Shown here in pieces: positions 29,112 through 41,399 of a stretch of 64,000 nt of DNA. The stretch's first letter is position 1; each line of letters starts with the position of its first letter. Origin of the DNA: Candidatus Acidiferrales bacterium (GTDB lineage: Bacteria; Acidobacteriota; Terriglobia; Acidiferrales; UBA7541); assembly GCA_049517055.1 (NCBI GenBank), contig JBEKSN010000002.1, forward strand, positions 433-64,432. The letters are read 5' to 3'. Below the pieces are notes generated by a model that was given only the letters and a program-made list of their open reading frames with translations, was not told the origin of the DNA and made no database searches. A program made the translations under genes and the position numbers.

Positions 29112-30146
29112 CTAGGAGCGGGCCGGCTGCTGTTGCGTTAGGCAGTGGATGGTGCCGAATCCCCAGACTAAATCGACGGAATGGATTCCGACTACGGAGC
29201 GCGTAGGGAATAAATCGCTGAGGATGCCGAGAGCTACGCGGTCGTTGGGATCGTTAAATGTGGGCACTAACACCGCGGAATTCGAGATGTAGAAATTTGC
29301 GTAACTGGCGGGGAGGCGCACGCCATCGAAAAAGAGAGGAGACGGCATCGGAAGCGCGATGGCGTGTATTTTGCTTCCGTCTTCCAGCTTTGCGCCGCGC
29401 AGGCGTTCCCAATTTTCTTCGAGCGCCCGGTAATTCTTCTCGCGCGAATTCTTTTCACGGCAAAGCACGACGGTGCGTCGATTCACGAAGCGGCATAAAT
29501 CATCGACGTGGCCGTGCGTGTCGTCGCCGGCGATTCCCTTTCCGAGCCATATAATATTTTTTGCGCCGAGCGATGCTCGCAGAACGGATTCGATCTGGCT
29601 ACGAGTAAACCCGGGATTGCGGACCTGGCGCTTTTGATCGAGAAGACACTCTTCGGTGGTGAGCAGCGTGCCGGAACCGTTCACGTCGATGCTTCCGCCT
29701 TCGAGAACTACGTCGCGCCCGTCTAGCTGGACCGGAAAGATTTTCATTTTCAACCGGCGCGCCGCTTGTGCTGGAATTGCATCGTCTTTTTTCCAGTCCG
29801 GGTAGTGCGCCCAGGCGTTGAAGCGGAACCGGGCGATGGCAACCTCCGGGCGGGGCTTGGCGCGTTTGACAAAGATGGGGCCGAAGTCGCGCGTCCATCC
29901 TCTATTCGTGGGGAAGCGCAGAAACTGTACTCTGCTCAAGCTGACGCCTGCGCTTTTCAAAACTCTGCGCGCTTGCGCTTCATGCGCTGCTGAATTCACC
30001 AGGATGCGAACGAGTTCGCCGGGAACAATTTTGCGGACGATCTCGCCGTAAACCCAGTGGATCGGAGCGATCTTTCCGGGCCAATCAGTTTCATTGTGAG
30101 GCCAGCCGATCCAGGTGGCTTCGTGAGGCGCCCATTCGGCGGGCAT
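29112..30146 (-). CDS. aguA: Agmatine deiminase
   Basis: The protein starting MPAEWAPHEATWIGWPH and ending ...GTIHCLTQQ (catalytic Cys) matches the agmatine deiminase family. The upstream part of ORF 29112..30386 overlaps aguB and is Arg/Pro-rich noise. Confidence 0.85.
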   Translation of the reverse strand: MPAEWAPHEATWIGWPHNETDWPGKIAPIHWVYGEIVRKIVPGELVRILVNSAAHEAQARRVLKSAGVSLSRVQFLRFPTNRGWTRDFGPIFVKRAKPRPEVAIARFRFNAWAHYPDWKKDDAIPAQAARRLKMKIFPVQLDGRDVVLEGGSIDVNGSGTLLTTEECLLDQKRQVRNPGFTRSQIESVLRASLGAKNIIWLGKGIAGDDTHGHVDDLCRFVNRRTVVLCREKNSREKNYRALEENWERLRGAKLEDGSKIHAIALPMPSPLFFDGVRLPASYANFYISNSAVLVPTFNDPNDRVALGILSDLFPTRSVVGIHSVDLVWGFGTIHCLTQQQPARS

Positions 30147-30208
30147 CCGAAAGCCGAGAGACGCCGGGGTGTTTTCTTCGGCGGAGCGGACGATGCGGCG
30201 GGGAGGCT

Positions 30209-31108
30209 TCAAGGTTTTTCGTCGAGGAAACGCTGTTCGAGGCCAGCGTAGGCATCGATTCGGCGGTCGCGCAAGAAGGGCCAATTGCGGCGAACATCTT
30301 CCAGATGGGCGAGATCTACTTCGCCATATAGGATTTCTTCGCGGTCGATGGAAGCTTCGGCGATGACGACTCCCTGAGGATCGCAAAGGAACGAGCTGCC
30401 CCAGAATTCGAGGCCGGCTCCGCCTTCGGCGGGAGTTTCGTGTCCGACGCGGTTGACGGCCGCGACGTAGAGGCCGTTGGCGATGGCGTGGCTACGCTGG
30501 ATCGTGCGCCACGAATCGCGCTGCGCTTCGCCGTTGGATGCTTTTTCGCTGGGATGCCAACCGATCGCGGTGGGATAGAAAAGGACGCATGCGCCGTTGA
30601 GCGCGGCGAGGCGCGCGCCTTCCGGGTACCACTGATCCCAGCAAATTAACGTGGCGATCTTGCCTGCGCTGGTGGAAAAGGCGCGAAAGCCCAAATCTCC
30701 CGGCGTGAAATAAAATTTCTCGTAATAAGCGGGGTCGTCGGGAATGTGCATTTTGCGGTAGACGCCGGCGATGCGGCCGTCGGAGTCAATGATCGCGGCA
30801 CTGTTGTGATAAATTCCCGGCGCCCGGCGTTCGAAGAGCGGTGCAACGATAACGGTCTTAGTTTTTTGTGCCACGCGACCCAATTCTTCCGTGGTGGGTC
30901 CTGGCACGGACTCCGCCAATTCGAAATTCGCGGTGTCTTCGCGCTGGCAGAAATATTGCGAGCGAAAAAGTTCCGGCAAGCAGACCACCTGGGCGCCCGA
31001 GCGGGCGGCCTCTTCAATGCGAGAGGTCGCGTGCGCGAGGTTTTCGGCAGATTTGGCGCTGACGGCCATCTGCACCAGAGCAACGTTGAATTTGAGCGGC
31101 GTCGGCAC
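30209..31108 (-). CDS. aguB: N-carbamoylputrescine amidase (nitrilase superfamily)
   Basis: 299 aa. CN-hydrolase motifs (CLPELF, catalytic LICWDQWYPE). Adjacent to aguA. Confidence 0.85.
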   Translation of the reverse strand: MPTPLKFNVALVQMAVSAKSAENLAHATSRIEEAARSGAQVVCLPELFRSQYFCQREDTANFELAESVPGPTTEELGRVAQKTKTVIVAPLFERRAPGIYHNSAAIIDSDGRIAGVYRKMHIPDDPAYYEKFYFTPGDLGFRAFSTSAGKIATLICWDQWYPEGARLAALNGACVLFYPTAIGWHPSEKASNGEAQRDSWRTIQRSHAIANGLYVAAVNRVGHETPAEGGAGLEFWGSSFLCDPQGVVIAEASIDREEILYGEVDLAHLEDVRRNWPFLRDRRIDAYAGLEQRFLDEKP

Positions 31109-31219: not shown

Positions 31220-31717
31220 TCAAGGTTTTTCCTTCTTCAATTTCAGTGCTTTCTGGTCCTGATATTCTTTCCACGTGAGGAATATCAGCAAGCCGTCAAA
31301 AAGAGTGAGGATAATAAGCGCCCACGAATGCGTATGTGTGAATCTGTAAAGTTGGTAGACCATAAAGGCGCCGAATACCGCAATCGTCAGCGGGTAAGCC
31401 CAAAGCCTATTGGCCCAGAGGCAGACTACCAGCACAACCTTAACGAGGCCATGCGAGAGGAGATAGAGCGAGGCGAACAGGGGGCTTCCGCTGGCCAATT
31501 TCTGTGAAGCAGCGCTTATGTGGCGGAAAATAATATCGTGCTTATCGCGGGCGAGCTCATGCTGGCACAGCGCTTGCAACCAAGCGTTCAGCGAGTTGAC
31601 TTTAAACCACAGCAACGCGCCGCCGACCGCTTCTAATAGTCCGTCAACGCCCTTGATGGTGATGCCTACACGAAACGAATCGTGAAGCAGGATGTGAGAA
31701 AGCTTTTTTTTCAACAT
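31220..31717 (-). CDS. DUF2127-like membrane protein
   Basis: 165 aa with four predicted TM helices and an N-terminal GVDGLLEAVGGALLWF motif. Confidence 0.5.
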   Translation of the reverse strand: MLKKKLSHILLHDSFRVGITIKGVDGLLEAVGGALLWFKVNSLNAWLQALCQHELARDKHDIIFRHISAASQKLASGSPLFASLYLLSHGLVKVVLVVCLWANRLWAYPLTIAVFGAFMVYQLYRFTHTHSWALIILTLFDGLLIFLTWKEYQDQKALKLKKEKP

Positions 31718-31850: not shown

Positions 31851-32876
31851 ATGAGGTTGCGAGCGCTTGTCATCTTCTGCGGCATTTTGGTTTGCCTGTC
31901 GATCGCGCAAGCGCAGGATAAGGCACCGAACGTTGTGAAATATCACGCGACACTGGAGACGGTGAAATATGTTTACGGCGTAGCGCCACCTGTAGCACGA
32001 CTAGCGCCGGGAGATGTTCTCGAGACGAATACGCTTGACGCATTCGGGGACGCCATTCAAAAGCCCGGCGATACGCTCGTGCTGGTGAAAGGCGACAACC
32101 CGCTCACCGGTCCTTTCCATATCGAGGGTGCTGAACCGGGTGACACGATCGCCATCGACTTCATGACGTTGGAAGTGAACGGGGCGCAAGGAGTGGGCGC
32201 GTTTGCGCCGGGCTTTGGCGCGCTTAACTCCACAAACTACACGCCGATGATTCAGGCTCCCCTTCCCGAGCGCATATGGCTCTATCCGATTCATCCTGAT
32301 GACAACACTGCGACTTTTCAGGCGCATGATTCGAATTTCTCGGTGAAGATCCCGCTGCATCCTTTTCTGGGATGCATTGGTGTGGCGCCCTCCGACGGCG
32401 AAGCTCGCAGCTCCGTGGTTCCCGCTGAATTCGGAGGCAACATGGACTCTTCTGAGGCGAGTGTGGGTAACACTCTTTATTTACCCGTGAATGTCCCGGG
32501 CGCGCTGCTCTACATGGGCGACGGGCACGCGGCCATGGGCGATGGTGAAATTGCCGGCACGGCGATTGAGGTACCGTTGCGCGTTCGGCTGCGCGTGCGC
32601 GTAATCAAGGGACAAAAAATTGATTGGCCGCGTTTCGAAAATAAAGATGAAATCATGGCCGTCGGCATCTACCGTCCGCTTGACGATTCATTACGAATCG
32701 CGTTTACCCAGCTTGTCGGCTGGATTCATCGGGATTACGGGTTGTCCGAGCTGGACGCGTACGAATTACTCTCGAAAGTCGCCACGATTCACCTTGCTGA
32801 AATGGTCGATCCGAATTACGTTGTGATCGCGAAAATTGACAAGAAGTACCTGCCCCCGCGCAAAACTTCGCACTAA
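31851..32876 (+). CDS. Acetamidase/formamidase-family protein (secreted)
   Basis: 341 aa with a signal peptide. Family motifs: FGGNMD and GDGHAAMGDGEIAGTAIE. Confidence 0.8.
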   Translation: MRLRALVIFCGILVCLSIAQAQDKAPNVVKYHATLETVKYVYGVAPPVARLAPGDVLETNTLDAFGDAIQKPGDTLVLVKGDNPLTGPFHIEGAEPGDTIAIDFMTLEVNGAQGVGAFAPGFGALNSTNYTPMIQAPLPERIWLYPIHPDDNTATFQAHDSNFSVKIPLHPFLGCIGVAPSDGEARSSVVPAEFGGNMDSSEASVGNTLYLPVNVPGALLYMGDGHAAMGDGEIAGTAIEVPLRVRLRVRVIKGQKIDWPRFENKDEIMAVGIYRPLDDSLRIAFTQLVGWIHRDYGLSELDAYELLSKVATIHLAEMVDPNYVVIAKIDKKYLPPRKTSH

Positions 32877-32964: not shown

Positions 32965-33028
32965 CGGCCCCACGCGCGGGATGCCTTTTGACATGGTTGG
33001 TTTGTGTTAGTCCCCGCCGGAGACCGCC

Positions 33029-34417
33029 ATCACACCCGCTGCGACTAAACCCAAAGTTGCGATTGTTGACGATGACCATAGCCTTCGCTCAAAGATTGCG
33101 TCCGCTCTGCGATCGGAGTTCGAAGTCTTCGAAGGCGAGGATATGGCAGCGGCCTACAGCCTCCTCCAAGGGTCCGCACTTGACGTTTTGCTCCTGGGCC
33201 TCCCGCTCGGTGACGCGGGGGTTCGCGAATGCACCGAGCTGCTTGCCCGGCTGGTCGGAAGCGAAATTGACACCCTCGTAATCGTGCTCAGTTCTGACAA
33301 AACAAAAGCCACCGCTTTGAAAGTGATCGACGCAGGCTCTTACGACTACTTCATCAAGCCCATTGACACGGACGTTCTTCGGCATCTACTCGAGCGAGCC
33401 GTTGAAAAATTACACATTCAGCGCGAAAACCGAATTCTCCGTCAGGAGATAAGCCGCAAGAGCACTCATGGCGATTTAATCGGATCGACCGACGCCATGA
33501 GCCATGTTTTCGATTTCATAAAGCGAATGGCCCGGACGACCACCAATGTCATCATCCGCGGAGAGAGCGGGGTGGGTAAAGAACTTGTCGCAAGGGCCCT
33601 TCACGAACAGAGTCCGCGACGAAACCGTGCATTCGTTAGCGTGAATTGCGCCGCGCTTCCCGAAGGCTTAATGGAAGCTGAGCTATTTGGCTATGAGAAG
33701 GGAGCCTTCACCGGCGCAACGGCCATGAAGGAAGGGCGCGTGGAAATGGCCCACCAAGGAACGCTGTTTCTTGATGAAATTGCGACACTTACGCCCGCTC
33801 TCCAGAGCAAACTCTTGCGTGTGTTGGAGGATCGCTCGTTCACTCGACTAGGCGGCAAAAAGCCCATCCGCGTGGATTTCCGCCTAATTAGTGCGACAAA
33901 CGAAGATCTGGAGGAGATGGTTCGCGAGGAACGGTTTCGCGAAGATCTCTATTACCGAATTCACGTGGTGCCCATTTTCGTGCCCTCTCTACGCGAGAGA
34001 ATGGAAGACATACCGGTGCTTACGGATTACTTCGTCAGCGTTTATTGTGCTGCCAATAGTCTCCCCCCAAAGCGCATTGCGGACGACGCGATGCTGGCCC
34101 TGAAGCGCTACCCGTGGCCTGGGAACGTCCGCGAGCTCCAGAATGCAATTCAAAGGCTGGTTATAATGACGGACGGGGAGGTGATCTCGTTAAAGGACCT
34201 CCCCGGTGAGATTGTGCAAGCTGCCGGCCGGGATTCGCGCAACCGTTTCCGTCTCCCCTCAGGTGGAATAAATCTGGCTAAGGAAATGGAGACTTTCGAG
34301 CGTCGCTGGCTTCAGGAAGCTTTAGAGCAGGCTAAAGACGGGAAAGCCGATGCGGCGCGACTGCTGGGAGTGGACCGGAATCGGTTGAACTACCTATGTC
34401 GTAAGTACAATCTATAA
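33029..34417 (+). CDS. Sigma-54-dependent transcriptional activator (atypical REC - AAA+ - Fis HTH)
   Basis: AAA+ Walker A GESGVGKE, the sigma-54 contact loop GAFTGA, and a C-terminal HTH (AARLLGVDRNRLNYLCRKYNL). The first ATG is at 33143, but the receiver N-terminus (KVAIVDDDHSLR) is encoded in frame upstream with no ATG, GTG or TTG after the in-frame stop at 33008. An ATC at 33029 sits 6 nt after a GGAGA SD. Confidence 0.85.
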   Translation: MTPAATKPKVAIVDDDHSLRSKIASALRSEFEVFEGEDMAAAYSLLQGSALDVLLLGLPLGDAGVRECTELLARLVGSEIDTLVIVLSSDKTKATALKVIDAGSYDYFIKPIDTDVLRHLLERAVEKLHIQRENRILRQEISRKSTHGDLIGSTDAMSHVFDFIKRMARTTTNVIIRGESGVGKELVARALHEQSPRRNRAFVSVNCAALPEGLMEAELFGYEKGAFTGATAMKEGRVEMAHQGTLFLDEIATLTPALQSKLLRVLEDRSFTRLGGKKPIRVDFRLISATNEDLEEMVREERFREDLYYRIHVVPIFVPSLRERMEDIPVLTDYFVSVYCAANSLPPKRIADDAMLALKRYPWPGNVRELQNAIQRLVIMTDGEVISLKDLPGEIVQAAGRDSRNRFRLPSGGINLAKEMETFERRWLQEALEQAKDGKADAARLLGVDRNRLNYLCRKYNL

Positions 34418-34552
34418 GCTTTTGGATGACTTTTTAATCGTCGCGGTGAGAATTTCAACAGAATTTTGCGGTACTTTTGACCCGGAAAGGGCTCGAATAC
34501 TCTAACCTCCTCTCTTTCAGTCCTTTAACTTCCCTGCGTTTCCCTCCGACAT

Positions 34553-34568
34553 TGGAACCAGTTTTGCA
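34553..34568 (+). promoter_or_regulatory. Sigma-54 (-24/-12) promoter TGGAAC-N5-TTGCA for peptide gene A
   Basis: TTGGAACCAGTTTTGCA matches YTGGCACGrNNNTTGCW with exact GG-N10-GC spacing. It lies ~50 nt upstream of the ATG at 34616. Confidence 0.7.
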
Positions 34569-34615
34569 CAGAAGAAGGTGTGACCCAAGCTGTACCTCAA
34601 CGCGGAGGAAGTATC

Positions 34616-34699
34616 ATGGCAAAGAAAATCTTGAAGAAGGCAAAAAAGTTGGAAGAAACGAAGCCCCTCACAAGAGTCGGCTGGGCGAGTAAGACCTAA
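34616..34699 (+). CDS. 27-aa lysine-rich small peptide A (MAKKILKKAKKLEETKPLTRVGWASKT)
   Basis: ATG 7 nt after a GGAGGAA SD, with a sigma-54 promoter upstream and a terminator downstream. Paralogous to 35114..35197. Too short for the ORF track. Confidence 0.65.
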   Translation: MAKKILKKAKKLEETKPLTRVGWASKT

Positions 34700-34766
34700 G
34701 CGTTTTCGCATTACAGGTGCAGCGGCTCGGCTGCGCACCAAGAGATAGCCAATACGGAACTAGCGG

Positions 34767-34800
34767 GCTGCCACCGAAAGGCTGGCAGCTCTTTCTTTTT
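34767..34800 (+). terminator. Intrinsic terminator after peptide gene A
   Basis: GCTGCCA-loop-TGGCAGC stem followed by a T-rich tail (CTCTTTCTTTTT). Confidence 0.6.
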
Positions 34801-35043
34801 ACCAGAAGTAACCTCGCCCGGGATTCGCCCCAGCAGTTCATACCCACGTCTTATTCCGACACTTCTCTTCCAAGGCTCTGCGATGGGGATGAGTACCTAA
34901 GGCATCGCCTGCATATTGAATTATTCAACTCAAACTCAAAAATTAAACACATTTGCTATCGCAGGCCGTTTGCGCGCTGCTCCTTGCCGTCGATAAGTGC
35001 TTTCAAATCAAGTACAGCTCCTCAAGTGGCCCGGTTCACAGTT

Positions 35044-35059
35044 TGGCGCGCGGATTGCA
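35044..35059 (+). promoter_or_regulatory. Sigma-54 (-24/-12) promoter TGGCGC-N5-TTGCA for peptide gene B
   Basis: TTGGCGCGCGGATTGCA has exact consensus spacing. It lies ~55 nt upstream of the ATG at 35114. Confidence 0.7.
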
Positions 35060-35113
35060 CTAGCAGCAGTGTAGGCAGCAGGAAAACAAAAAATTCTAAG
35101 GAGACTCAAGACC

Positions 35114-35197
35114 ATGGCGAAAAAGACAGTGAAAAAGGGAAAGAAGCTCGGATCAGTGAAGCCTCTCAGCTATCACGGGCCAGTTCGCACTAAGTAA
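35114..35197 (+). CDS. 27-aa lysine-rich small peptide B (MAKKTVKKGKKLGSVKPLSYHGPVRTK)
   Basis: ATG after an AAGGAGA SD, with a sigma-54 promoter upstream and a strong terminator downstream. 13 of 27 residues are identical to peptide A, concentrated in MAKKxxKKxKKLxxxKPL. Confidence 0.65.
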   Translation: MAKKTVKKGKKLGSVKPLSYHGPVRTK

Positions 35198-35254
35198 CTT
35201 GGACCTGAAGCAAGCGGGCTTCGTGCCTGCCAAAGTTAGCAGTTGCACTACCAA

Positions 35255-35290
35255 GGGCTGCCGTCCCAGGAACGGCAGCCCTTTTTTATT
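35255..35290 (+). terminator. Intrinsic terminator after peptide gene B
   Basis: Perfect 10-bp stem GGGCTGCCGT / ACGGCAGCCC with a 7-nt loop, followed by TTTTTTATTT. It abuts the stop of the convergent 35331 gene. Confidence 0.8.
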
Positions 35291-35330
35291 TGATGACTGA
35301 GGCTTCTGGCAGCCAGACGGGCCGGGTCTC

Positions 35331-37478
35331 TCACCAAAACTGCGAACGCACCCAGCGCCATGTCGCCAGCCCGCTCTGCCAGGCCAAAGAATGTCTGGGC
35401 CCGGAAATTTTCGCTTTTCCGGTCATGCCTTCCCGCAGGGACCCATCGGGGTTTGGAATTTCCATCTCAACTGCAACGAAGTTTGCCAACTCTTGCCCTA
35501 ATCGCGTGAGCTTCTCTGTCTGCGCGACCGGATGATCCAGCGCCGCGGCCGGAAGTATTTTGTCGATGTGGCCCGTGTAAGTTCTGTACGGAAACGGGAG
35601 CACCTTCACCTTTGCAGAGGCGCCGGGTTGAACGTCCGGAAGTTCCCGGTCCTGTACAAGGATACGCGCCTTCATGGTGCTTCGATTCACCAGCCGCGCA
35701 AACTCGTCCCCCGCCGAAAGGTATTCGCCAGCCTTCTGTTCCACATTTGAAGTAGTGACGACCCCGTCCATGGGAGCTCGAATTTCGAGGTTCTGCAGTC
35801 TTTTCTGCGCTACGGAAAGCTCTTGCTCAAGCCGGCCGCGATTGCGAACCACTTGCGCCGCTTGACTGAAGTCTGAGCGATCCTGATTATTGCGGAGGTT
35901 GCTGCTGGCGAGCCCTAATTGTTGGGTAAGCGATTGCGCGTCGGCACTTATTTCGGGATTCTCCAAAATGGCCAATATTTGCCCCGCTTTTACTACATCG
36001 CTCTCGCGGACAAACACTCTTTGAATTCTGCCGTCAACGGCAGCCCGAACGCGCACATCCTTTCCGGGCTCGAGCACCAAATCGGTAGAGACCTTCGAAG
36101 AAAACGGGGGCAACAGAAATAGCAGAACCAGTCCAAGAGCGCCAACTTGCTGCGCCCGGGTCATTTTCCAGGCCATATATTTCTCCTTCTTGTCCCGCAT
36201 CCAAGCCCGTACGACGGGCAAAGCTTTTCGCAAACCCTTTCTTGCAAAGAAATAGATGACGCCCAGGGTTGCCAGATAGCCCCATTCGTCCCCCAGTTGG
36301 CTCACGAGCACATTCTTAGCAAACACAAGCATGAGAATCAGGAGCGACGAGCTGTAAATCACAGCTGAAATTCCGAACAGGAAGAAAACACGGCGCTGGC
36401 GCTTGCTGGACGGCGGCAAGTCTATGTCATGCCGAAAAATGTACTTCTGCACCCAGGCTCGCAAGTAGCCGAAAGACTCTTCACGCAGGTTATCAATTTT
36501 GAGGAATTGCGAGAGCGCATAGTAGCCGTCGGCTTTGATTAGCGGGTTCAAGTTCACGAGCGCGCCCTGAATGCCGCTCAGCAGCATCATTTTGTAGAAG
36601 AAGTCATTCGTCAGCGAGCCCGGTGCCGTGAAATGCCAGACCAATGCAGCCACTCCGCAGATCACCAGTTCAATCCAAATGCCCGCGAAGATGACCCACT
36701 GACGCGGAGTCCCTGTCTTGAACAGAAGAATGTCCGTGGTGTCAGTAAAAAATGCGGGAGTGAAATAGATGAGCAAAAAACCCATCTGATGAACCTCGCC
36801 GCCAAAATGTTTACAAGTAAGCCCGTGACCGAATTCGTGTATGGCACCCAGACCCAAGAGGAGGAACCAAAAGACCCAGATGTCGTAGGCGCTTTTACCT
36901 GCAAAACTATATAAGGCCTCCGTGTCCTGCTGCACGCGGGTCCAATCGCCGGCGAGCAGATAAACCGCCACAATAAATAGGAACAAAGAAAAGATGACAA
37001 AGCCCTTGGTAAACATCCATCCGAGATAGCGATCCAACTTAGCGAGCGTCTTGTCCGGATCCCAAGCTTTAAAGCTGATGTAGAGGACACTCGATTGCTC
37101 GACCCGACCTTTGCGCTCGTCGCGAATGCGCTCAAGTACAGCCAGGTTTTTTTCCCCGACCGAGCGTTCCCACATAGTGGCTTCCACCGAGTCGAGGAAG
37201 TCGAGCACGTCGGCCTCGCTGGTGGTCAAATCGGGATCCTTTTCAGACATGGCCTGTGCGATCTCGGCAGCCGTACGAGTTCCGTCGCAAAGTGACAGCA
37301 GTTGATATTCCGTGGCCCCGTATCGGTTGTAGGAGTTCGTCTCGCGGTTTTTGACCACGTAACTGATTTCGCCCGCTACCGTTTGTTCGCTGATGCGCAG
37401 ATCGGTACGGAGTTTGGGTCGTTTAAGACCTTTCGCCAGGACGCTGGAAACTTGAAGGCTGGTAGGACCGAAACGCAT
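35331..37478 (-). CDS. PqqD-like (RRE) domain / M50 site-2-protease-like metalloprotease / HlyD membrane-fusion domain fusion protein
   Basis: 715 aa. N-terminal PqqD-like segment (YQLLSLCDGTRTAAEIAQAMSEK...EADVLDFLDSV). HExxH in AIHEFGHGLTCKHFGG and a second S2P motif NLNPLIKADGYYALS within TM helices. C-terminal HlyD barrel-sandwich and coiled coil (VDGRIQRVFVRESDVVKAGQILAIL, LEIRAPMDGVVT). Confidence 0.8.
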   Translation of the reverse strand: MRFGPTSLQVSSVLAKGLKRPKLRTDLRISEQTVAGEISYVVKNRETNSYNRYGATEYQLLSLCDGTRTAAEIAQAMSEKDPDLTTSEADVLDFLDSVEATMWERSVGEKNLAVLERIRDERKGRVEQSSVLYISFKAWDPDKTLAKLDRYLGWMFTKGFVIFSLFLFIVAVYLLAGDWTRVQQDTEALYSFAGKSAYDIWVFWFLLLGLGAIHEFGHGLTCKHFGGEVHQMGFLLIYFTPAFFTDTTDILLFKTGTPRQWVIFAGIWIELVICGVAALVWHFTAPGSLTNDFFYKMMLLSGIQGALVNLNPLIKADGYYALSQFLKIDNLREESFGYLRAWVQKYIFRHDIDLPPSSKRQRRVFFLFGISAVIYSSSLLILMLVFAKNVLVSQLGDEWGYLATLGVIYFFARKGLRKALPVVRAWMRDKKEKYMAWKMTRAQQVGALGLVLLFLLPPFSSKVSTDLVLEPGKDVRVRAAVDGRIQRVFVRESDVVKAGQILAILENPEISADAQSLTQQLGLASSNLRNNQDRSDFSQAAQVVRNRGRLEQELSVAQKRLQNLEIRAPMDGVVTTSNVEQKAGEYLSAGDEFARLVNRSTMKARILVQDRELPDVQPGASAKVKVLPFPYRTYTGHIDKILPAAALDHPVAQTEKLTRLGQELANFVAVEMEIPNPDGSLREGMTGKAKISGPRHSLAWQSGLATWRWVRSQFW

Positions 37479-37490
37479 GGTCGGGTTCCT

Positions 37491-38414
37491 CTACGGCTTT
37501 GATGGCGAGGTTCCAGGCCATCCGACGCGTACCGCCATTCCGGGACGCAGATCGGAAATTCCCGAACCAGTGAGCTGCGCCACCACATTGTAACTATCGC
37601 TGGACGGATCCACGGTAGGACTTACTTTCACCACCTTCGCGCTGACCTGGCGATCGGCACCTCCCACGAGCGTAAGGCTAACCGGCGCGCCGAGTGCGGG
37701 GCGCGGGCTGGCCAATTCGGAAATTTGAAACTGGACCTGCAGAGGATAGAGTTGACTCACTCGAAAACACTTGTCACCCTTGACGATGGCTTGTCCTTCT
37801 CGAACGTAGCGGCGCGCCACGACGCCCGAGAACGGAGCGCGCAAAACGGTCTGGTCGATTTCAATTTCGAGACGGTGGATCTCGGCTTGGCCGCTTTCGA
37901 CCAAGGCCTCATATCCGTGCATGTCGTACTCAGCGCCTTTTGCTTCGAATTCCGCGGCTTCGAGATCAGCCTGACTTGACAGTCCCGCTTCCCGCAACTG
38001 CTGCTGACGCCGGTAGGCTGCGCCCTTAGCCTTCAGTTCCGCTGCTTTGTATTGCAGGTTGTTCTGAGTCACCTTCAGATCGTCGCGCGCCTTGATGAGC
38101 TCCTGTTGCAGGCTTCGGTCGTCAAGGTGGCCAAGAATTTCGCCTGCCTTGACTACGCTGCCTTCGTCTTTGACGACGGACGTCACCGTGCCATCGCGTT
38201 GCGAGGAGAGATCTACCTGATGTTCCACTGTGAGCACGCTTAGAATATCGGGGGTCTCGGTCCCTTTTGCGGAAACTGCGCTTGGCGCGGGAGTCTGAGA
38301 CGAAGCTGCGTTGGATGGCGGCGCATTCTTGGGGCTGGAAGCAACCGACGAATTGTCGCAACCATTTCCGACAATTGCCATTGTAGCGACTAAGATCAAC
38401 GCGGCGCGTTTCAT
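37491..38414 (-). CDS. HlyD/RND-adaptor-family periplasmic lipoprotein
   Basis: 307 aa. Signal peptide ending in Cys (LVATMAIVGNGC), a Ser/Pro linker, and barrel-sandwich/coiled-coil motifs (DGTVTSVVKDEGSVVKAGEILGHLD, LRAPFSGVVA). Only 12 nt from the downstream gene. Confidence 0.8.
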   Translation of the reverse strand: MKRAALILVATMAIVGNGCDNSSVASSPKNAPPSNAASSQTPAPSAVSAKGTETPDILSVLTVEHQVDLSSQRDGTVTSVVKDEGSVVKAGEILGHLDDRSLQQELIKARDDLKVTQNNLQYKAAELKAKGAAYRRQQQLREAGLSSQADLEAAEFEAKGAEYDMHGYEALVESGQAEIHRLEIEIDQTVLRAPFSGVVARRYVREGQAIVKGDKCFRVSQLYPLQVQFQISELASPRPALGAPVSLTLVGGADRQVSAKVVKVSPTVDPSSDSYNVVAQLTGSGISDLRPGMAVRVGWPGTSPSKP

Positions 38415-38433: not shown

Positions 38434-40860
38434 TCACGGCAGCCAGGGCCATATCTTTTGCCAGATCCATCTGAACGGCGAACGCAGAATCACGTACCCA
38501 ACCGGGTACCATCCACTGTCAAACCACCCGCCCCACGACCGAATTCTCACTCGCCCAACCATTCCATCGCGGGCCTTTCCTCCGGCGTTCTCGAATATCG
38601 CGCGCACCAGGAAGTACTGGTCTCCCGAGTCAGTCCGAGTCTGTGCCCCGATGCGATCTACAGTGCCCTCGAACGTAGTTGTCGGGAACGCATTTAACTT
38701 CAGTGACACATTTTCCCCTGGCCGTACGAGCGAAAGATCGGTTTCAGGGACGCTCATTTCCGCAGCCATGCGGTCCTGAGATACTACTTCGCAGAAACTA
38801 TCTCCGGATTTGATCATGGACCCGGATTTTTCTTCCACCTTCGGAGTGGTCACGATGCCGGCGATGGGTGAGGTCAAGCGCGCGTCATTTATTCGTTGCT
38901 GCTCAAGTGCCACTTCAGCGGAATATAGCTGCGAGCGTATCTGAGCCTGTCCTGCCGCTGCGGGGTCATTCCGGAATTCGGCTTCGGCTAATTCACGCCG
39001 CACCTGAGACAACGCGGTGTCGGCTTCTATTAGCTTTATGCGATCCTCGCTGTCGTCGAGTTGCGCAAGCAGCTGGCCTGGCTTCACCAAATCGCCTTCG
39101 CGCACGAAGACTTGTTTTACGACTCCGCCCTCAATTGCGCTCACCATGCGGCGCTCGGATGGGACCACCGTGGCGTCGGTGCCAACGCGCATGGGCCATG
39201 GGATTATCGTCAGAAAAAGGGCCACGATGCCGGCGCGTTGCGCGTATTCCATCATGCGGCTCTGCGGCATAGCCGCCAGGAACTTTTTCTTTCTCTGCGC
39301 AAACGGCTGGAAAATATTCGCCAGCGGAACTTGCTGGTAAAGCTGGGCGTTGCGGATAGCAACCGTAGTCTGGCTGGCAAGGATGGCCAGGGTTTCCAAA
39401 TGGCTTTCTGAGAGAAAATCGGCTTCCTTGCTCAGAAGAATCATTGCGCCGAGCGTCCCTTGATCGTCGCGCAGTGGCAAGCCGTAAAAGCCTTGGTGTT
39501 CATGGGCTTCTAGGAACGAGACAATTTGGGCGTGGGCCTCTGCAGGCTCCACTTGCCAGCCATCCTCATGAAAATTCGCCGAAACGTGACTATCCTGTTC
39601 CGCCACCCACTCCATGCGTTCGCGCAGCTCGCTCATTTCCCGCGTCTTCGGAACTTCCGTTTCTCCGGAGACGGCCCCCAGGACGAAGCGCCCACGGTCG
39701 TAAAATCCAATAACGCAACTCTCAAACGGCACGACAGATGCCGACTGCGCCACTACCGTGGTCAAAACGTGATCGAGATCCAGAGTGGAAGTAATTTCCT
39801 GCGAAATTTTCAACAGGGCATCGAGGGCGTGAACCTTTCGCTCGGACTCCAGCAGGTTTGCATTGTGCAGTGCCACCGCGGCCTGTTCGCTGATACTCGA
39901 GAGGAAAAATAGGTCGTCTTCATTGAACAGCGTACCGTCCGCCTTATTAATGATCTCGACGACACCGAGAACCTCGTCGTCTTTTCGCAGGGGCGCCGCC
40001 ATCCAAGACTGAAGCTCGAAATCTCCGCCAGCTTCAATGCGTTCGGCTAGCCCGGCTTCCCCGCTCGGGTCTTCGACTAACTTCGGGTTTGCTTGCTGCG
40101 CAACTTCAGCCAGCAAACCTTCACTTAATGACGCGGTGGCGTCCTCTTCAACCGTAGGGTCATCGCCGATTTGCCTCGCAAGACTGAGTTCCTGTCCGCC
40201 AGGCGAAGCGAGCCAGAGATTGCAGGCTCCGGCCCCCAAAATGTCGCGGATTTTACCCGCTACGATGGGGAGAAGCTCTTCCAGTTCCAGAGTTGACGTA
40301 AATGTCTGGCCCAGGTCGTATAGCGCGGTCAGGCGTTCGAGAGTGGCGAGTTGGCTCTGACGTTCCTGCTCAATCGCGCCCAGATTGGTCAGTGCGCGGC
40401 CTGCCAGCTGGCATGCTTCTTCCAGGAAGTGCGCGTCTTCGGCGGTGAAGTCCCCGGCGCGCTTATTGAGAACCTCGACTACGCCTTCCGGCCTTTGCGC
40501 TCCCGGCAGGGATGAATACAAAGCGGATTTCACGCGCGTACGGCTGAACTCATCAAGATGCTCAAGATCTTCTGGTGCGATTTCGCGTGCGGGCAAACGC
40601 CTGGTGGCGGCTGATTGGTACAATATTGCGAGCGTTCCCCCGTTGACAGGCAATTCGGTGGGATGCAAGCGTTCGCCCGGCTCAGTCCAGCGCATGCGGC
40701 AAAGGAGTTCCTCTGCTGTTCCGTTCGTCGTCCATACGAGCACGGCGCGCGCTCCGAGCGTAGTGCCCACTCGGGCGGCGAAGGTCTTCAGCAGGGTGTC
40801 TTGATCGCGGCACGCTAAAGATATGCTCGCGAGCTCAAAAAGCGCGGAAGATGTTTCCAT
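38434..40860 (-). CDS. Triple-GAF sensor fused to a TM-anchored HlyD membrane-fusion domain
   Basis: Three GAF-like modules, each ending in ...AVALHNANLLESER-type helices. One TM helix (AGIVALFLTIIPWP) is followed by HlyD motifs (IEGGVVKQVFVREGDLVKPGQLLAQLD, LTSPIAGIVT). The ATG at 40860 follows a GGGAGAG SD. The ORF-track start at 40941 would overlap the candidate promoter. Confidence 0.75.
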   Translation of the reverse strand: METSSALFELASISLACRDQDTLLKTFAARVGTTLGARAVLVWTTNGTAEELLCRMRWTEPGERLHPTELPVNGGTLAILYQSAATRRLPAREIAPEDLEHLDEFSRTRVKSALYSSLPGAQRPEGVVEVLNKRAGDFTAEDAHFLEEACQLAGRALTNLGAIEQERQSQLATLERLTALYDLGQTFTSTLELEELLPIVAGKIRDILGAGACNLWLASPGGQELSLARQIGDDPTVEEDATASLSEGLLAEVAQQANPKLVEDPSGEAGLAERIEAGGDFELQSWMAAPLRKDDEVLGVVEIINKADGTLFNEDDLFFLSSISEQAAVALHNANLLESERKVHALDALLKISQEITSTLDLDHVLTTVVAQSASVVPFESCVIGFYDRGRFVLGAVSGETEVPKTREMSELRERMEWVAEQDSHVSANFHEDGWQVEPAEAHAQIVSFLEAHEHQGFYGLPLRDDQGTLGAMILLSKEADFLSESHLETLAILASQTTVAIRNAQLYQQVPLANIFQPFAQRKKKFLAAMPQSRMMEYAQRAGIVALFLTIIPWPMRVGTDATVVPSERRMVSAIEGGVVKQVFVREGDLVKPGQLLAQLDDSEDRIKLIEADTALSQVRRELAEAEFRNDPAAAGQAQIRSQLYSAEVALEQQRINDARLTSPIAGIVTTPKVEEKSGSMIKSGDSFCEVVSQDRMAAEMSVPETDLSLVRPGENVSLKLNAFPTTTFEGTVDRIGAQTRTDSGDQYFLVRAIFENAGGKARDGMVGRVRIRSWGGWFDSGWYPVGYVILRSPFRWIWQKIWPWLP

Positions 40861-40931: not shown

Positions 40932-40947
40932 AGCCTAGCAAATGCCA
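40932..40947 (-). promoter_or_regulatory. Candidate sigma-54-type promoter (TGGCAT-N5-AGGCT) for the GAF-HlyD/HlyD/M50 operon
   Basis: The minus strand reads TGGCATTTGCTAGGCT with correct GG-N10-GC spacing. The -24 element is strong and the -12 element is degenerate. It lies ~75 nt upstream of the ATG at 40860. Confidence 0.35.
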
Positions 40948-41063
40948 TGTATAGCGTCAAGGAAGACCGCTGTCGCCATCTGCCGTATTTCTTAGAAGTT
41001 TTTTGCAGGGACTTGATTGCCGGACATAATTCAGATAGCTTTGCAAAGCGCAGTGAGGCACAT

Positions 41064-41399
41064 GTGAACATTGGCATCCGCAAGGCTGGCCGAGCCACAA
41101 TCCTGGATCTCGACGGGCCGCTGAAATTGGGCGACGCTGAAGAATCTTTTCGCAATCAGATTCAGCAGCTCATCGAAGCGGGGACCACACACGTAGCTGT
41201 GAATCTCGCCGGCGTTACGGAACTCGACAGCTCGGGGATTGGGGCACTCGTTCGTGCGTTCACCACGCTGAAGCGCGCGGGCGGAAAATGCACCTACTTC
41301 GCGCCGAATAAGCGGGTAGTGATGCTGTTGAAAATGGTCCGGCTCGACACAATTCTTGACCTCGCCGAAGACGAAGCTACAGCTCTTACGCGCATCTAG
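41064..41399 (+). CDS. STAS-domain protein (anti-sigma-factor antagonist family)
   Basis: SpoIIAA-like sequence (ILDLDGPLKLGDAEE...VAVNLAGVTELDSSGIGALV). The GTG at 41064 follows a GAGG SD. ORF-track start 40947 is an alternative. Confidence 0.7.
   Translation: MNIGIRKAGRATILDLDGPLKLGDAEESFRNQIQQLIEAGTTHVAVNLAGVTELDSSGIGALVRAFTTLKRAGGKCTYFAPNKRVVMLLKMVRLDTILDLAEDEATALTRI

Follow-up and report, generated by a model that had tools for sequence, protein, structure and literature searches.

Paired lysine-rich mini-genes with putative sigma-54 promoters beside an RRE-M50-HlyD protease gene of an Acidobacterium: candidate precursors of very short cationic peptides

Introduction

In daptide biosynthesis, a site-2 peptidase fused to an RRE (the recognition element of RiPPs, peptides that are made by ribosomes and modified after translation) is the proposed agent of leader removal (10.1101/2023.03.08.531785). 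Here we describe a related protein and its likely substrates in a soil bacterium of Candidatus Acidiferrales (Acidobacteriota), represented by a metagenome-assembled genome. The analysed stretch of DNA, hereafter the window, is 64,000 nucleotides long and covers positions 433 to 64,432 of contig JBEKSN010000002.1 (assembly GCA_049517055.1). It contains two lysine-rich genes of 27 codons each, here called peptide A and peptide B, which lie between the gene of a sigma-54 activator and the gene of a 715-residue RRE-M50-HlyD fusion protein. We consider it probable that both peptides are leader-bearing precursors which are matured by this protein.

The 715-residue protein is similar to the daptide peptidase MpaP/DapP (Ren et al. 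2023, 10.1101/2023.03.08.531785) in having an N-terminal RRE, as judged from a structural model, followed by an M50 intramembrane metalloprotease. In both cases, the known or presumed substrates are small precursors encoded next to the peptidase, with a conserved leader. The best NCBIfam family of the 715-residue protein is daptide_HExxH, matched over 355 of the 379 model positions (12-366), but the score of 181 bits stays below the cutoff of NF041824 (300), and the proteins are thus homologous without being equivalogs. The protein also differs by an additional HlyD domain (periplasmic adaptor) at its C-terminus, the host, an Acidobacterium, is a diderm and neither an Actinobacterium nor a Bacillus relative, the regulation appears to involve sigma-54, and the cores are much shorter. 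None of the daptide cluster enzymes (MpaB DUF-RRE, oxidative decarboxylase, aminotransferase, methyltransferase) is encoded in the locus. The C-terminal Thr, invariant in daptides, is present in peptide A, whereas the last residue of peptide B is Lys and the majority of homologues close with a residue other than Thr.

Gram-positive peptide pheromones, including SHP, ComS/XIP, and the enterococcal sex pheromones, are matured by another M50 protease, Eep. Their precursors of 20-30 residues have a Lys-rich N-terminus and a short active C-terminal segment, are cut by an M50 site-2 protease, and owe their strain specificity to C-terminal variability, an arrangement which resembles the one proposed here. 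However, the peptides are not homologous, the present locus is without an RRNPP receptor or a PptAB exporter, Eep has neither RRE nor HlyD domain, the cores here are cationic instead of hydrophobic, and the host has an outer membrane. The PatS/HetN morphogens (RGSGR) are also tiny, unmodified precursors of a diderm, and their C-terminal 5-8 residues constitute the signal; they show no homology to the peptides, employ other processing and export proteins, and are not under sigma-54 control.

Further systems share single properties with the locus. Class II bacteriocins and RiPPs exported through HlyD adaptors (NHLP/Nif11, TIGR03794) couple leader removal to an HlyD adaptor in a diderm, and have small precursor genes beside the machinery, several paralogues of which share one leader. 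In contrast to double-glycine and NHLP export, the leaders described here lack a GG motif, C39 peptidase and ABC transporter are absent, the NHLM_micro_HlyD model scores about 21-27 bits (cutoff 156), and the protease is of the M50 type and presumably RRE-guided. Cyanobactin and fungal Kex2 repeat precursors (PMC7329392) are reminiscent of distant relatives of the present peptides, which consist of a leader and 6-20 tandem units of 4-9 residues, many ending in Lys or Arg, and of relatives of peptide B that repeat (V/I)KPLxx units. The proteases are unrelated, however (PatA/PatG subtilisins, Kex2), no macrocyclase is encoded here, and the peptides of the window are single-core. Compared to the epipeptide system (YydF with YydG, YydIJ, and YydH), the RiPP_HExxH_LiaK model reaches 44.9 bits against a cutoff of 225, and the module has neither a radical-SAM nor an ABC gene. 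Moreover, no core-modifying enzyme is conserved in the cluster, and the product would strictly be a proteolytically processed, otherwise unmodified ribosomal peptide. Adaptor domains of the HlyD family, as in tripartite efflux and type I secretion, are present, but the partner inner-membrane pump and outer-membrane factor are not conserved in the module. Full-text searches on the module (M50-HlyD, RRE, sigma-54, Acidobacteria) returned no description of it, and only the daptide paper was relevant, for its RRE-protease fusion. We class the system as a form of leader-guided maturation of ribosomal peptides whose architecture and precursor families are new.

Results

The two peptide genes occupy the 913 nucleotides between the stop of the activator gene (34417) and the protease gene (35331). 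Peptide A (34616..34699, forward strand, 27 codons) is the protease-distal gene and encodes MAKKILKKAKKLEETKPLTRVGWASKT, composed of the leader MAKKILKKAKKLEETKPL and the tail TRVGWASKT (‘R-x-x-W’ tail class). Peptide B (35114..35197, forward strand, 27 codons) is protease-proximal and encodes MAKKTVKKGKKLGSVKPLSYHGPVRTK, with the leader MAKKTVKKGKKLGSVKPL and the tail SYHGPVRTK (‘G-P-x-R’ tail class). Each gene has its own Shine-Dalgarno site: GGAGG (34604..34608, forward strand) 7 nucleotides upstream of the ATG of peptide A, and AAGGAG (35098..35103, forward strand) in front of peptide B, where TAAGGAG is kept in the orthologues. Re-reading and translation thus returned the coordinates, sequences, and ribosome-binding sites given in an earlier note on this DNA, and direct comparison gave the same 13 identical residues out of 27. 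The note had called the genes twins; both are real, but they represent two paralogous types, A and B, each with orthologues of its own. It had also found the peptide family unfamiliar, in agreement with Pfam and NCBIfam scans of both peptides and seven relatives, which gave no meaningful family match, and with the absence of both exact peptides from a collection of 15 billion predicted proteins. Longer relatives in that collection are labelled ‘hypothetical protein’. Open reading frames (ORFs) of this kind are shorter than the length limits of gene callers.

The case from a single genome was only suggestive, because a loose sigma-54 motif is not enriched within the window (5 matches, 4.5 expected by chance). 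Comparative data were obtained from 80 loci in distinct genomes, retrieved by alignment of orthologues of the 715-residue protein (61-92% identity). As the earlier note had proposed, peptide ORFs were searched for at these loci, using a hidden Markov model (HMM) of the leader against six-frame translations. The HMM identified about 134 peptide ORFs in 69 loci; with eight further loci, in which a sigma-54 promoter is followed by a divergent Lys-rich ORF, 77 of the 80 have a peptide ORF. The leader consensus is MAKK(T/P)LKK(A/S)KK(L/I/M)E(A/P)TKPL in the distal type A and MAK(A)K(T/P)VKKGKKLG(S/A)VKPL in the proximal type B, each followed by a tail, and the window has one gene of each type.

Several features of the homologous ORFs indicate that they are coding. 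ATG is the start codon in 132 of 134, and a Shine-Dalgarno-like site precedes 129, the 5′ untranslated region (UTR) being otherwise near-random. Leader entropy by codon position is 0.42/0.05/0.74 in type A and 0.19/0/0.50 in type B; this measure is partly circular, since the sequences were chosen by a protein-level pattern, but positions free of the pattern are likewise of low entropy at the second codon position. Codon differences are more often synonymous (216) than non-synonymous (146). The earlier note had looked to frame-breaking indels as evidence against the genes; the small ORFs are conserved at the orthologous loci, and leader indels keep the frame. Given the homologues in these loci, the codon periodicity, the in-frame indels, and the near-universal ATG and Shine-Dalgarno site, the comparative evidence that the peptide ORFs are real coding genes is overwhelming, and chance ORFs are ruled out by it.

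The association with the neighbouring genes is widespread. Three HlyD-domain genes, among them that of the 715-residue protein, are found in 80/80 loci, the activator gene in 75/80, and a gene for a STAS protein in 35/80. A blind scan of metagenome contigs with the back-translated type A leader recovered 152 ORFs, of which 108 have the promoter motif, from 119 contigs. If the flanking sequence was long enough, an M50-HlyD gene was located downstream in 45/69 and an activator gene upstream in 47/72.

Both peptide genes are preceded by a -24/-12 element of the sigma-54 type. The element of peptide A is TGGAACCAGTTTTGCA (34553..34568, forward strand; TGGAAC-CAGTT-TTGCA), at a position conserved among orthologues, and that of peptide B is TGGCGCGCGGATTGCA (35044..35059, forward strand; TGGCGC-GCGGA-TTGCA). 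In both, the GG and GC doublets are spaced by exactly 10 nucleotides, consistent with TGGCAC-N5-TTGCW and with the exact spacing that had been claimed for them. The strict element TGG-N8-TTGC is present 60-82 nucleotides upstream of the ATG in 114 of the 134 homologous ORFs, and those without it are mostly the second ORF of a tandem pair. From the start of the motif to the ATG there are 62-68 nucleotides in type A genes and 70-72 in type B genes.

A further conserved element is found upstream of the promoters. The heptamer [AT]TTCAAC, which is half of the inverted repeat TTGAA-N3-TTCAA, occurs at a fixed distance from the -24 element in 98 of 113 promoters, either 100-104 nucleotides (71 cases) or 120-124 nucleotides (37 cases). 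The 8-mers are enriched 20- to 40-fold over background, and the strict palindrome TTGAA-N3-TTCAA occurs in 1% of random windows. In the window, the site of peptide A (GCGGTGAGAATTTCAACAG, 34443..34461, forward strand) is a degenerate version with a TTTCAAC heptamer 100 nucleotides upstream of the -24 element. The site of peptide B (ATATTGAATTATTCAACTC, 34913..34931, forward strand) is a perfect inverted repeat, TTGAA-TTA-TTCAA, with the heptamer 121 nucleotides upstream, and the same site at the same distance is present in one other locus (L004). An enhancer that serves the adjoining activator is expected to be placed in this way, and we regard the sites as candidate enhancers. Together, the fixed-distance promoters, the enhancer-like sites, and the adjoining activator back the sigma-54 dependence that had been postulated from this locus, as far as it can be predicted from sequence.

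The activator (33029..34417, forward strand) is an NtrC-type response regulator with receiver, AAA+, and Fis-type helix-turn-helix domains (Pfam Sigma54_activat 2e-70, Response_reg, HTH_8). Its frame lacks ATG, GTG, and TTG from the preceding stop codon (33008-33010) up to the ATG at 33143, and a protein begun at 33143 would be devoid of the acidic pocket (IVDDD) that belongs to the receiver domain. The window is one of 26 loci with GGAG 6-8 nucleotides upstream of an in-frame codon that reads ATC in 24 loci and ATT in 2. This codon specifies the I in the conserved motif I-T-P-x-x-T-K-P-K, and a canonical start codon is missing upstream of it in 16 of the 26. Translation of the activator therefore probably begins at a conserved non-canonical AUC codon, located at 33029 in the window.

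Each peptide unit also ends in a terminator of its own, as had been claimed. In the 3′UTR of peptide A (34716..34800, forward strand), hairpin 1 (34716-34739) is followed by a terminator hairpin (34765-34791) and UCUUUCUUUUU, a U-tract extending to 34800. This terminator was recognized in the RNA fold, having been missed by a strict T-run filter because its T-run is interrupted; the 3′UTR folds at -40.8 kcal/mol (z = -2.8). The 3′UTR of peptide B (35198..35290, forward strand) consists of hairpin 1, a conserved AGUUAGCAGUUGCA stretch, and a terminator (35253-35283) with U-tract; this terminator was picked up by a scan. A hairpin with T-run follows 95 of 133 peptide ORFs, compared to 4 of 134 stretches of upstream control DNA. 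With a promoter and a terminator for each, the two units are predicted to be transcribed independently of one another, in line with the earlier note.

The predicted transcripts, of about 200-250 nucleotides and each with its own promoter and terminator, raise the question whether the units are sigma-54-dependent small regulatory RNAs, with ORFs that are untranslated or secondary (a dual-function RNA) and with the conserved 3′ end, i.e. hairpin 1, the single-stranded AGYAGUWGCA, and the terminator loop UCCCAGGAA, as the active part. The 3′UTRs indeed fold more stably than shuffled sequence (z about -2.7). Among 23 aligned type B loci, compensatory changes affect 7 of the 16 pairs of the terminator stem, while 23 distinct sequences all have the same loop, G-UCCCAGGAA-C. 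Hairpin 1 of type B is conserved in structure and variable in sequence, and is followed by single-stranded AG(Y)AGUWGCA. Conservation of the type B 3′UTR thus exceeds the needs of a terminator, and the region might bind a protein, act as a stability element, or give rise to a small RNA derived from the 3′UTR. On the other hand, substitutions in the leader are codon-periodic and its indels in-frame, ATG and Shine-Dalgarno site are near-universal, and relatives have ORFs of 50-149 residues with the same promoter and position. An Rfam scan of 34400-35400 gave sub-threshold noise only. An RNA function could accompany coding but cannot replace it, and we consider the interpretation as regulatory RNAs highly improbable.

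The two parts of the peptides have evolved at very different rates. Among seven relatives with 90-92% protease identity, the segments of the peptide unit rank from leader (0.87 identity) over terminator (0.82; the figure holds for that of peptide A) and promoter (0.81) to 3′UTR (0.61), 5′UTR (0.56), and tail (0.42). The tail is hence the fastest-evolving segment of the unit, ahead of the flanking non-coding DNA, and the leader/core pattern with diverging last 9 residues, first noticed in the window, is also seen among close relatives, with 87% identity in the leader against 42% in the tail.

The tails are nevertheless constrained. In 133 tails, with lengths of 3-19 residues (median 8), Asp and Glu together make up 1%, 115 tails have a net charge of +1 or +2, and Lys or Arg is found within the last two residues in 98. 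Tails of the peptide A class include RVGWASKT, RAIWASKT, RAPWASK, RTPWAK, RTAWN, and IRWGGN at 66-100% protease identity, and tails such as R-x-P-W recur throughout the clade. Tails of the peptide B class have G-P-x-R or G-x-G-R-P; orthologues of peptide B read MAK(A)KTVKKGKKLGSVKPL and continue with TVHGPARG, NHYSPARP, KAFGPGRP, and similar tails. Units of the form (V/I)KPL(M/T)xx are repeated in the type B tails of divergent loci, e.g. VKPLMN-VKPLMN-VKPLIRVS. Since the composition is constrained, the tail classes persist, and distant precursors carry tandem core repeats (see below), the tail appears to be a maintained payload and not junk.

The 715-residue protein (35331..37478, reverse strand; Pfam HlyD_D23, Peptidase_M50) is composed of an RRE-like, PqqD-type winged helix (residues ∼25-100), the M50 domain, transmembrane segments, and a periplasmic HlyD domain (∼465-700). 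The protease motifs are HEFGH at 214-218 and NLNPLIKADG at 309-318, and HExxH and NxxPxxxxDG do not vary among 13 sequences. An AlphaFold2 (AF2) model of residues 1-140 shows strands at 28-34, 37-44, and 49-54 and helices at 55-63, 70-80, and 88-97, with a predicted local distance difference test (pLDDT) score of 79-89 over residues 21-100. In a Foldseek comparison with the PDB, the seven best hits were all RRE/PqqD domains (TbiB1 with bound leader, PqqD, lasso-peptide B1), the best being 5v1u, 5sxy, and 6jx3, with target TM-scores of 0.56-0.66. We conclude with moderate confidence that the N-terminal domain adopts the RRE fold (b1b2b3-a1a2a3). The assignment comes from structural comparison alone, as a sequence-profile search of the domain against PDB sequences was not significant (best E = 0.43).

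Two more HlyD-domain genes accompany the protease gene. A periplasmic adaptor of 307 residues with the lipoprotein signal MKRAALILVATMAIVGNG-C (37491..38414, reverse strand) and an 808-residue GAF-HlyD protein (38434..40860, reverse strand; three cytoplasmic GAF domains, a transmembrane segment at 543-561, periplasmic HlyD) are both encoded in 80/80 loci; a longer ORF of the latter, beginning with TTG at 40941, is possible. HlyD_D23, HlyD_3, and RND_mfp score above cutoff across the three proteins, whose genes converge on the peptide units. The STAS protein (40947..41399, forward strand; Pfam STAS 5e-15), of the anti-sigma-antagonist type, is encoded divergently from the GAF-HlyD gene and is a frequent accessory of the module. 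PADLOC returned no defence-system match for the three HlyD proteins and the STAS protein.

The RRE-M50-HlyD family extends well beyond the 80 loci, to 2,811 clusters at 50% identity (E < 1e-30), with many full-length members at about 30% identity to the window protein. Seven distant acidobacterial modules at this level of identity and two loci from Gemmatimonadota were sampled. All seven acidobacterial modules have the GAF-HlyD gene followed by the RRE-M50-HlyD gene, a separate HlyD-adaptor gene nearby, and a small gene that converges on the protease gene and has a -24/-12-like element upstream. The element is a strict TGG-N8-TTGC in five modules, and only a looser TGG-N9-TGC in L084 and L086. 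STAS is encoded in six of the seven, L210 lacking it, and a sigma-54 activator likewise in six, sometimes with a histidine-kinase-like gene, with none on the L210 fragment.

The products of these small genes consist of a conserved leader and tandem repeats. In six of the modules, all but L084, ‘x-L-T-E-E-Q-K’ or ‘IQKKSLISTL’ leaders precede 6-20 tandem units of 4-9 residues. The repeats are (GLGKK)x9 in L083 (8195-8479, reverse strand), (GGRTP)x~20 in L208 (7208-7657, reverse strand), (L/M)NA(K/R)x~18 in L085 (8296-8664, reverse strand), (LKSPS)x~16 in L209 (7264-7647, reverse strand), (TGT[IL]AKR)x6 in L086 (8288-8530, reverse strand), (ADRANPxAL)x~8 in L210 (7372-7773, reverse strand), and a GKLxR-like repeat in L084. 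They look like multi-core precursors of very short peptides.

In Gemmatimonadota, the same trio of GAF-HlyD, HlyD, and RRE-M50-HlyD genes is found, and a Crp/cNMP-binding regulator replaces the sigma-54 activator. The regulator gene is followed by 2-4 tandem genes for peptides of 50-56 residues (L206, 8055-9271, forward strand; L207, 8066-10497, forward strand), which have a conserved acidic leader ending in ...EELEERIAP, e.g. ...VRIELTDEQKQDLRNKTGQDANAIEFSVQELEERIAP, and a variable tail of 5-11 residues. A leader of the type ‘x-L-T-x-E-Q’ is common to the Gemmatimonadota and five of the acidobacterial modules. From the comparison of the distant acidobacterial and gemmatimonadotal modules, the conserved unit is the machinery together with a mini-precursor, the regulator being exchangeable, and the C-terminal region is the maintained product. 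The net charge of the RRE is -6 to -9 in Acidobacteriota, where leaders are basic in 4/5 sampled systems, and +1 to +2 in Gemmatimonadota, where leaders are acidic or neutral. Leader and RRE are complementary in charge in 6/7 systems, which is suggestive only. The link between the peptides and the RRE-protease-HlyD machinery that was drawn from the window is thus borne out by synteny in 80/80 loci, by relatives at ∼30% identity, by a second phylum, and by the modelled RRE fold.

Since RRE domains are typical of RiPP pathways, the RRE-M50-HlyD protein might only remove the leader, with essential modification, export, or both carried out by enzymes and pumps encoded elsewhere. The repeat precursors are similar to what radical-SAM RiPP enzymes act on (the peptide with TGT[IL]AKR repeats gives a weak TigB hit, E = 0.01), and peptide A has a C-terminal Thr like daptide precursors. 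However, no modifying enzyme is conserved beside the module in the 80 close, seven distant acidobacterial, and two gemmatimonadotal loci, and no pump in the 80. The peptide genes of the metagenome scan that stand apart from the module were examined for a hidden modifying enzyme nearby, and their neighbours are heterogeneous. Most tails, moreover, do not end in Thr. We consider such a dispersed pathway very unlikely.

Some observations concern the surroundings of these genes. Two of the peptide genes that stand apart from the module, in L117 (2831-3733, forward strand) and L178 (9235-10446, reverse strand), adjoin PF03706 lysyl-phosphatidylglycerol synthase transmembrane (flippase-like) proteins; the family is linked to cationic-peptide resistance, and the adjacency may be a coincidence. 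In the window, a perfect sigma-54 consensus, TGGCACAGCGCTTGCA (31563..31578, forward strand), lies within a DUF2127 gene (31220..31717, reverse strand), 290 nucleotides upstream of a formamidase-like gene (ATG at 31851). As a third promoter it was rejected: it is interior to a gene on the opposite strand, is not followed by a Shine-Dalgarno site or ORF, and probably arose by chance. At 29112..31108 (reverse strand), an agmatine deiminase (PAD_porph) and a CN_hydrolase, probably N-carbamoylputrescine amidase, form a putrescine-synthesis pair upstream of the module, which is kept in the closest relatives only and is unrelated to the peptide system. The pst/phoU, polyamine, and formamidase genes that flank the locus are outside the conserved module, and the adjoining pstAB-phoU encodes an unrelated phosphate importer.

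Discussion

The reading we favour, and consider probable on comparative grounds, is that the peptides are inducible, translated precursors that are docked on the RRE by their leader, cut by the M50 protease, and then, as cationic peptides of very small size, probably exported. A signal would activate the adjoining NtrC-type response regulator, which would bind TTGAA-N3-TTCAA ∼100-120 nucleotides upstream of the -24/-12 elements and drive sigma-54 transcription of two short monocistronic mRNAs. The Lys-rich and probably amphipathic 18-residue leader (MAKKxLKKxKKLExTKPL) may then dock on the acidic cytoplasmic RRE of the 715-residue protein, and the fused M50 site-2 protease may cut at or after the conserved K-P-L junction. 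Cleavage would release a cationic C-terminal peptide of 3-19 residues, in the window TRVGWASKT and SYHGPVRTK. The periplasmic HlyD domains of the protease fusion, the lipoprotein adaptor, and the GAF adaptor could conduct the product across the envelope, and the released peptide may act outside the cell as a strain-specific signal or antagonist. The genes, their regulatory architecture, the contrast in evolution between leader and tail, the obligate synteny, the modelled RRE fold, and the intact protease motifs come from sequence and comparison, whereas leader binding, the cleavage site, export, the role outside the cell, and hence the status of processed precursor, are inferred. Hypervariable cores and tandem repeats would fit diversifying selection, as for molecules of recognition or antagonism, and the hypervariability suggests such a role, as a pheromone or a bacteriocin.

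Several points weigh against this reading. Tails of three residues exist (MKR, ISR, INR) and are hard to picture as active products. The peptides lack a transmembrane helix, whereas M50 proteases normally cut such helices. No ATPase, proton-driven pump, or outer-membrane factor (TolC-like) gene is conserved in the module. In 14 of the 119 metagenome loci, the peptide genes are orphans, with neither protease nor activator near. The conserved loop of the 3′UTR hints at an additional function at the RNA level. As for the RRE, the Foldseek E-values are modest (0.015-0.04) and the AF2 model derives from a shallow alignment, the Pfam PqqD score of the domain is 21.5 bits against a cutoff of 23.4, and the full-length AF2 model (pLDDT 48) is too poor to use. 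Finally, all the loci come from uncultured, metagenome-assembled genomes.

The short tails, the orphan copies (two of them beside LPG_synthase_TM proteins), and the absence of a pump or modifying enzyme from the module would also suit a different function, in which the Lys-rich N-terminal 18-mer is itself active and the tail dispensable. The peptides would then be small cationic amphipathic proteins of the cell interior or inner membrane, which could, for example, turn the M50 protease or the HlyD assembly on or off by binding the RRE. No other part is nearly as well conserved as the N-terminus, and hydrophobic residues at positions 5, 6, 9, and 12 among the lysines suit an amphipathic helix. 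Against this speak the constrained composition of the tails and the persistence of tail classes over long distances. In other lineages, moreover, homologous machinery is paired with acidic N-terminal regions of 44 residues and long C-terminal tandem-repeat arrays, and there it is evidently the C-terminal part that is kept as payload. A conserved recognition sequence with a variable core is, in addition, the standard logic of RRE systems (10.1101/2023.03.08.531785). We regard an N-terminal effector as unlikely, and retain the leader-guided precursor as the preferred interpretation.

A broader interpretation is conceivable, which we put forward tentatively and hold to be somewhat doubtful. Acidobacteriota and Gemmatimonadota may possess a pump-less apparatus, in which an RRE-guided intramembrane protease, fused to one periplasmic adaptor and assisted by two more, would produce ultrashort (3-19 residues), unmodified cationic peptides from inducible precursors with a single core or with up to 20, for use outside the cell as strain-specific signals or antagonists. 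By analogy, such an apparatus might be the diderm counterpart of Gram-positive pheromones, and the bacterial counterpart of neuropeptide-like and Kex2-type repeat precursors.

For the dedicated sigma-54 activator, no regulatory output other than the peptide genes is evident, and the peptides are likely to be what a protein family of thousands of 50%-identity clusters acts on. The combination of activator, -24/-12 element, mini-ORF, and terminator beside an RRE-M50-HlyD gene would provide a rule by which more such peptides could be mined. If the proposed function is true, it would apply to many RRE-M50-HlyD proteins that are now labelled ‘efflux RND transporter periplasmic adaptor subunit’. To our knowledge, ribosomal peptide signalling in diderms is little documented, and if the mechanism holds, it would constitute a new route for the production and release of short peptides in abundant, poorly cultured soil phyla.

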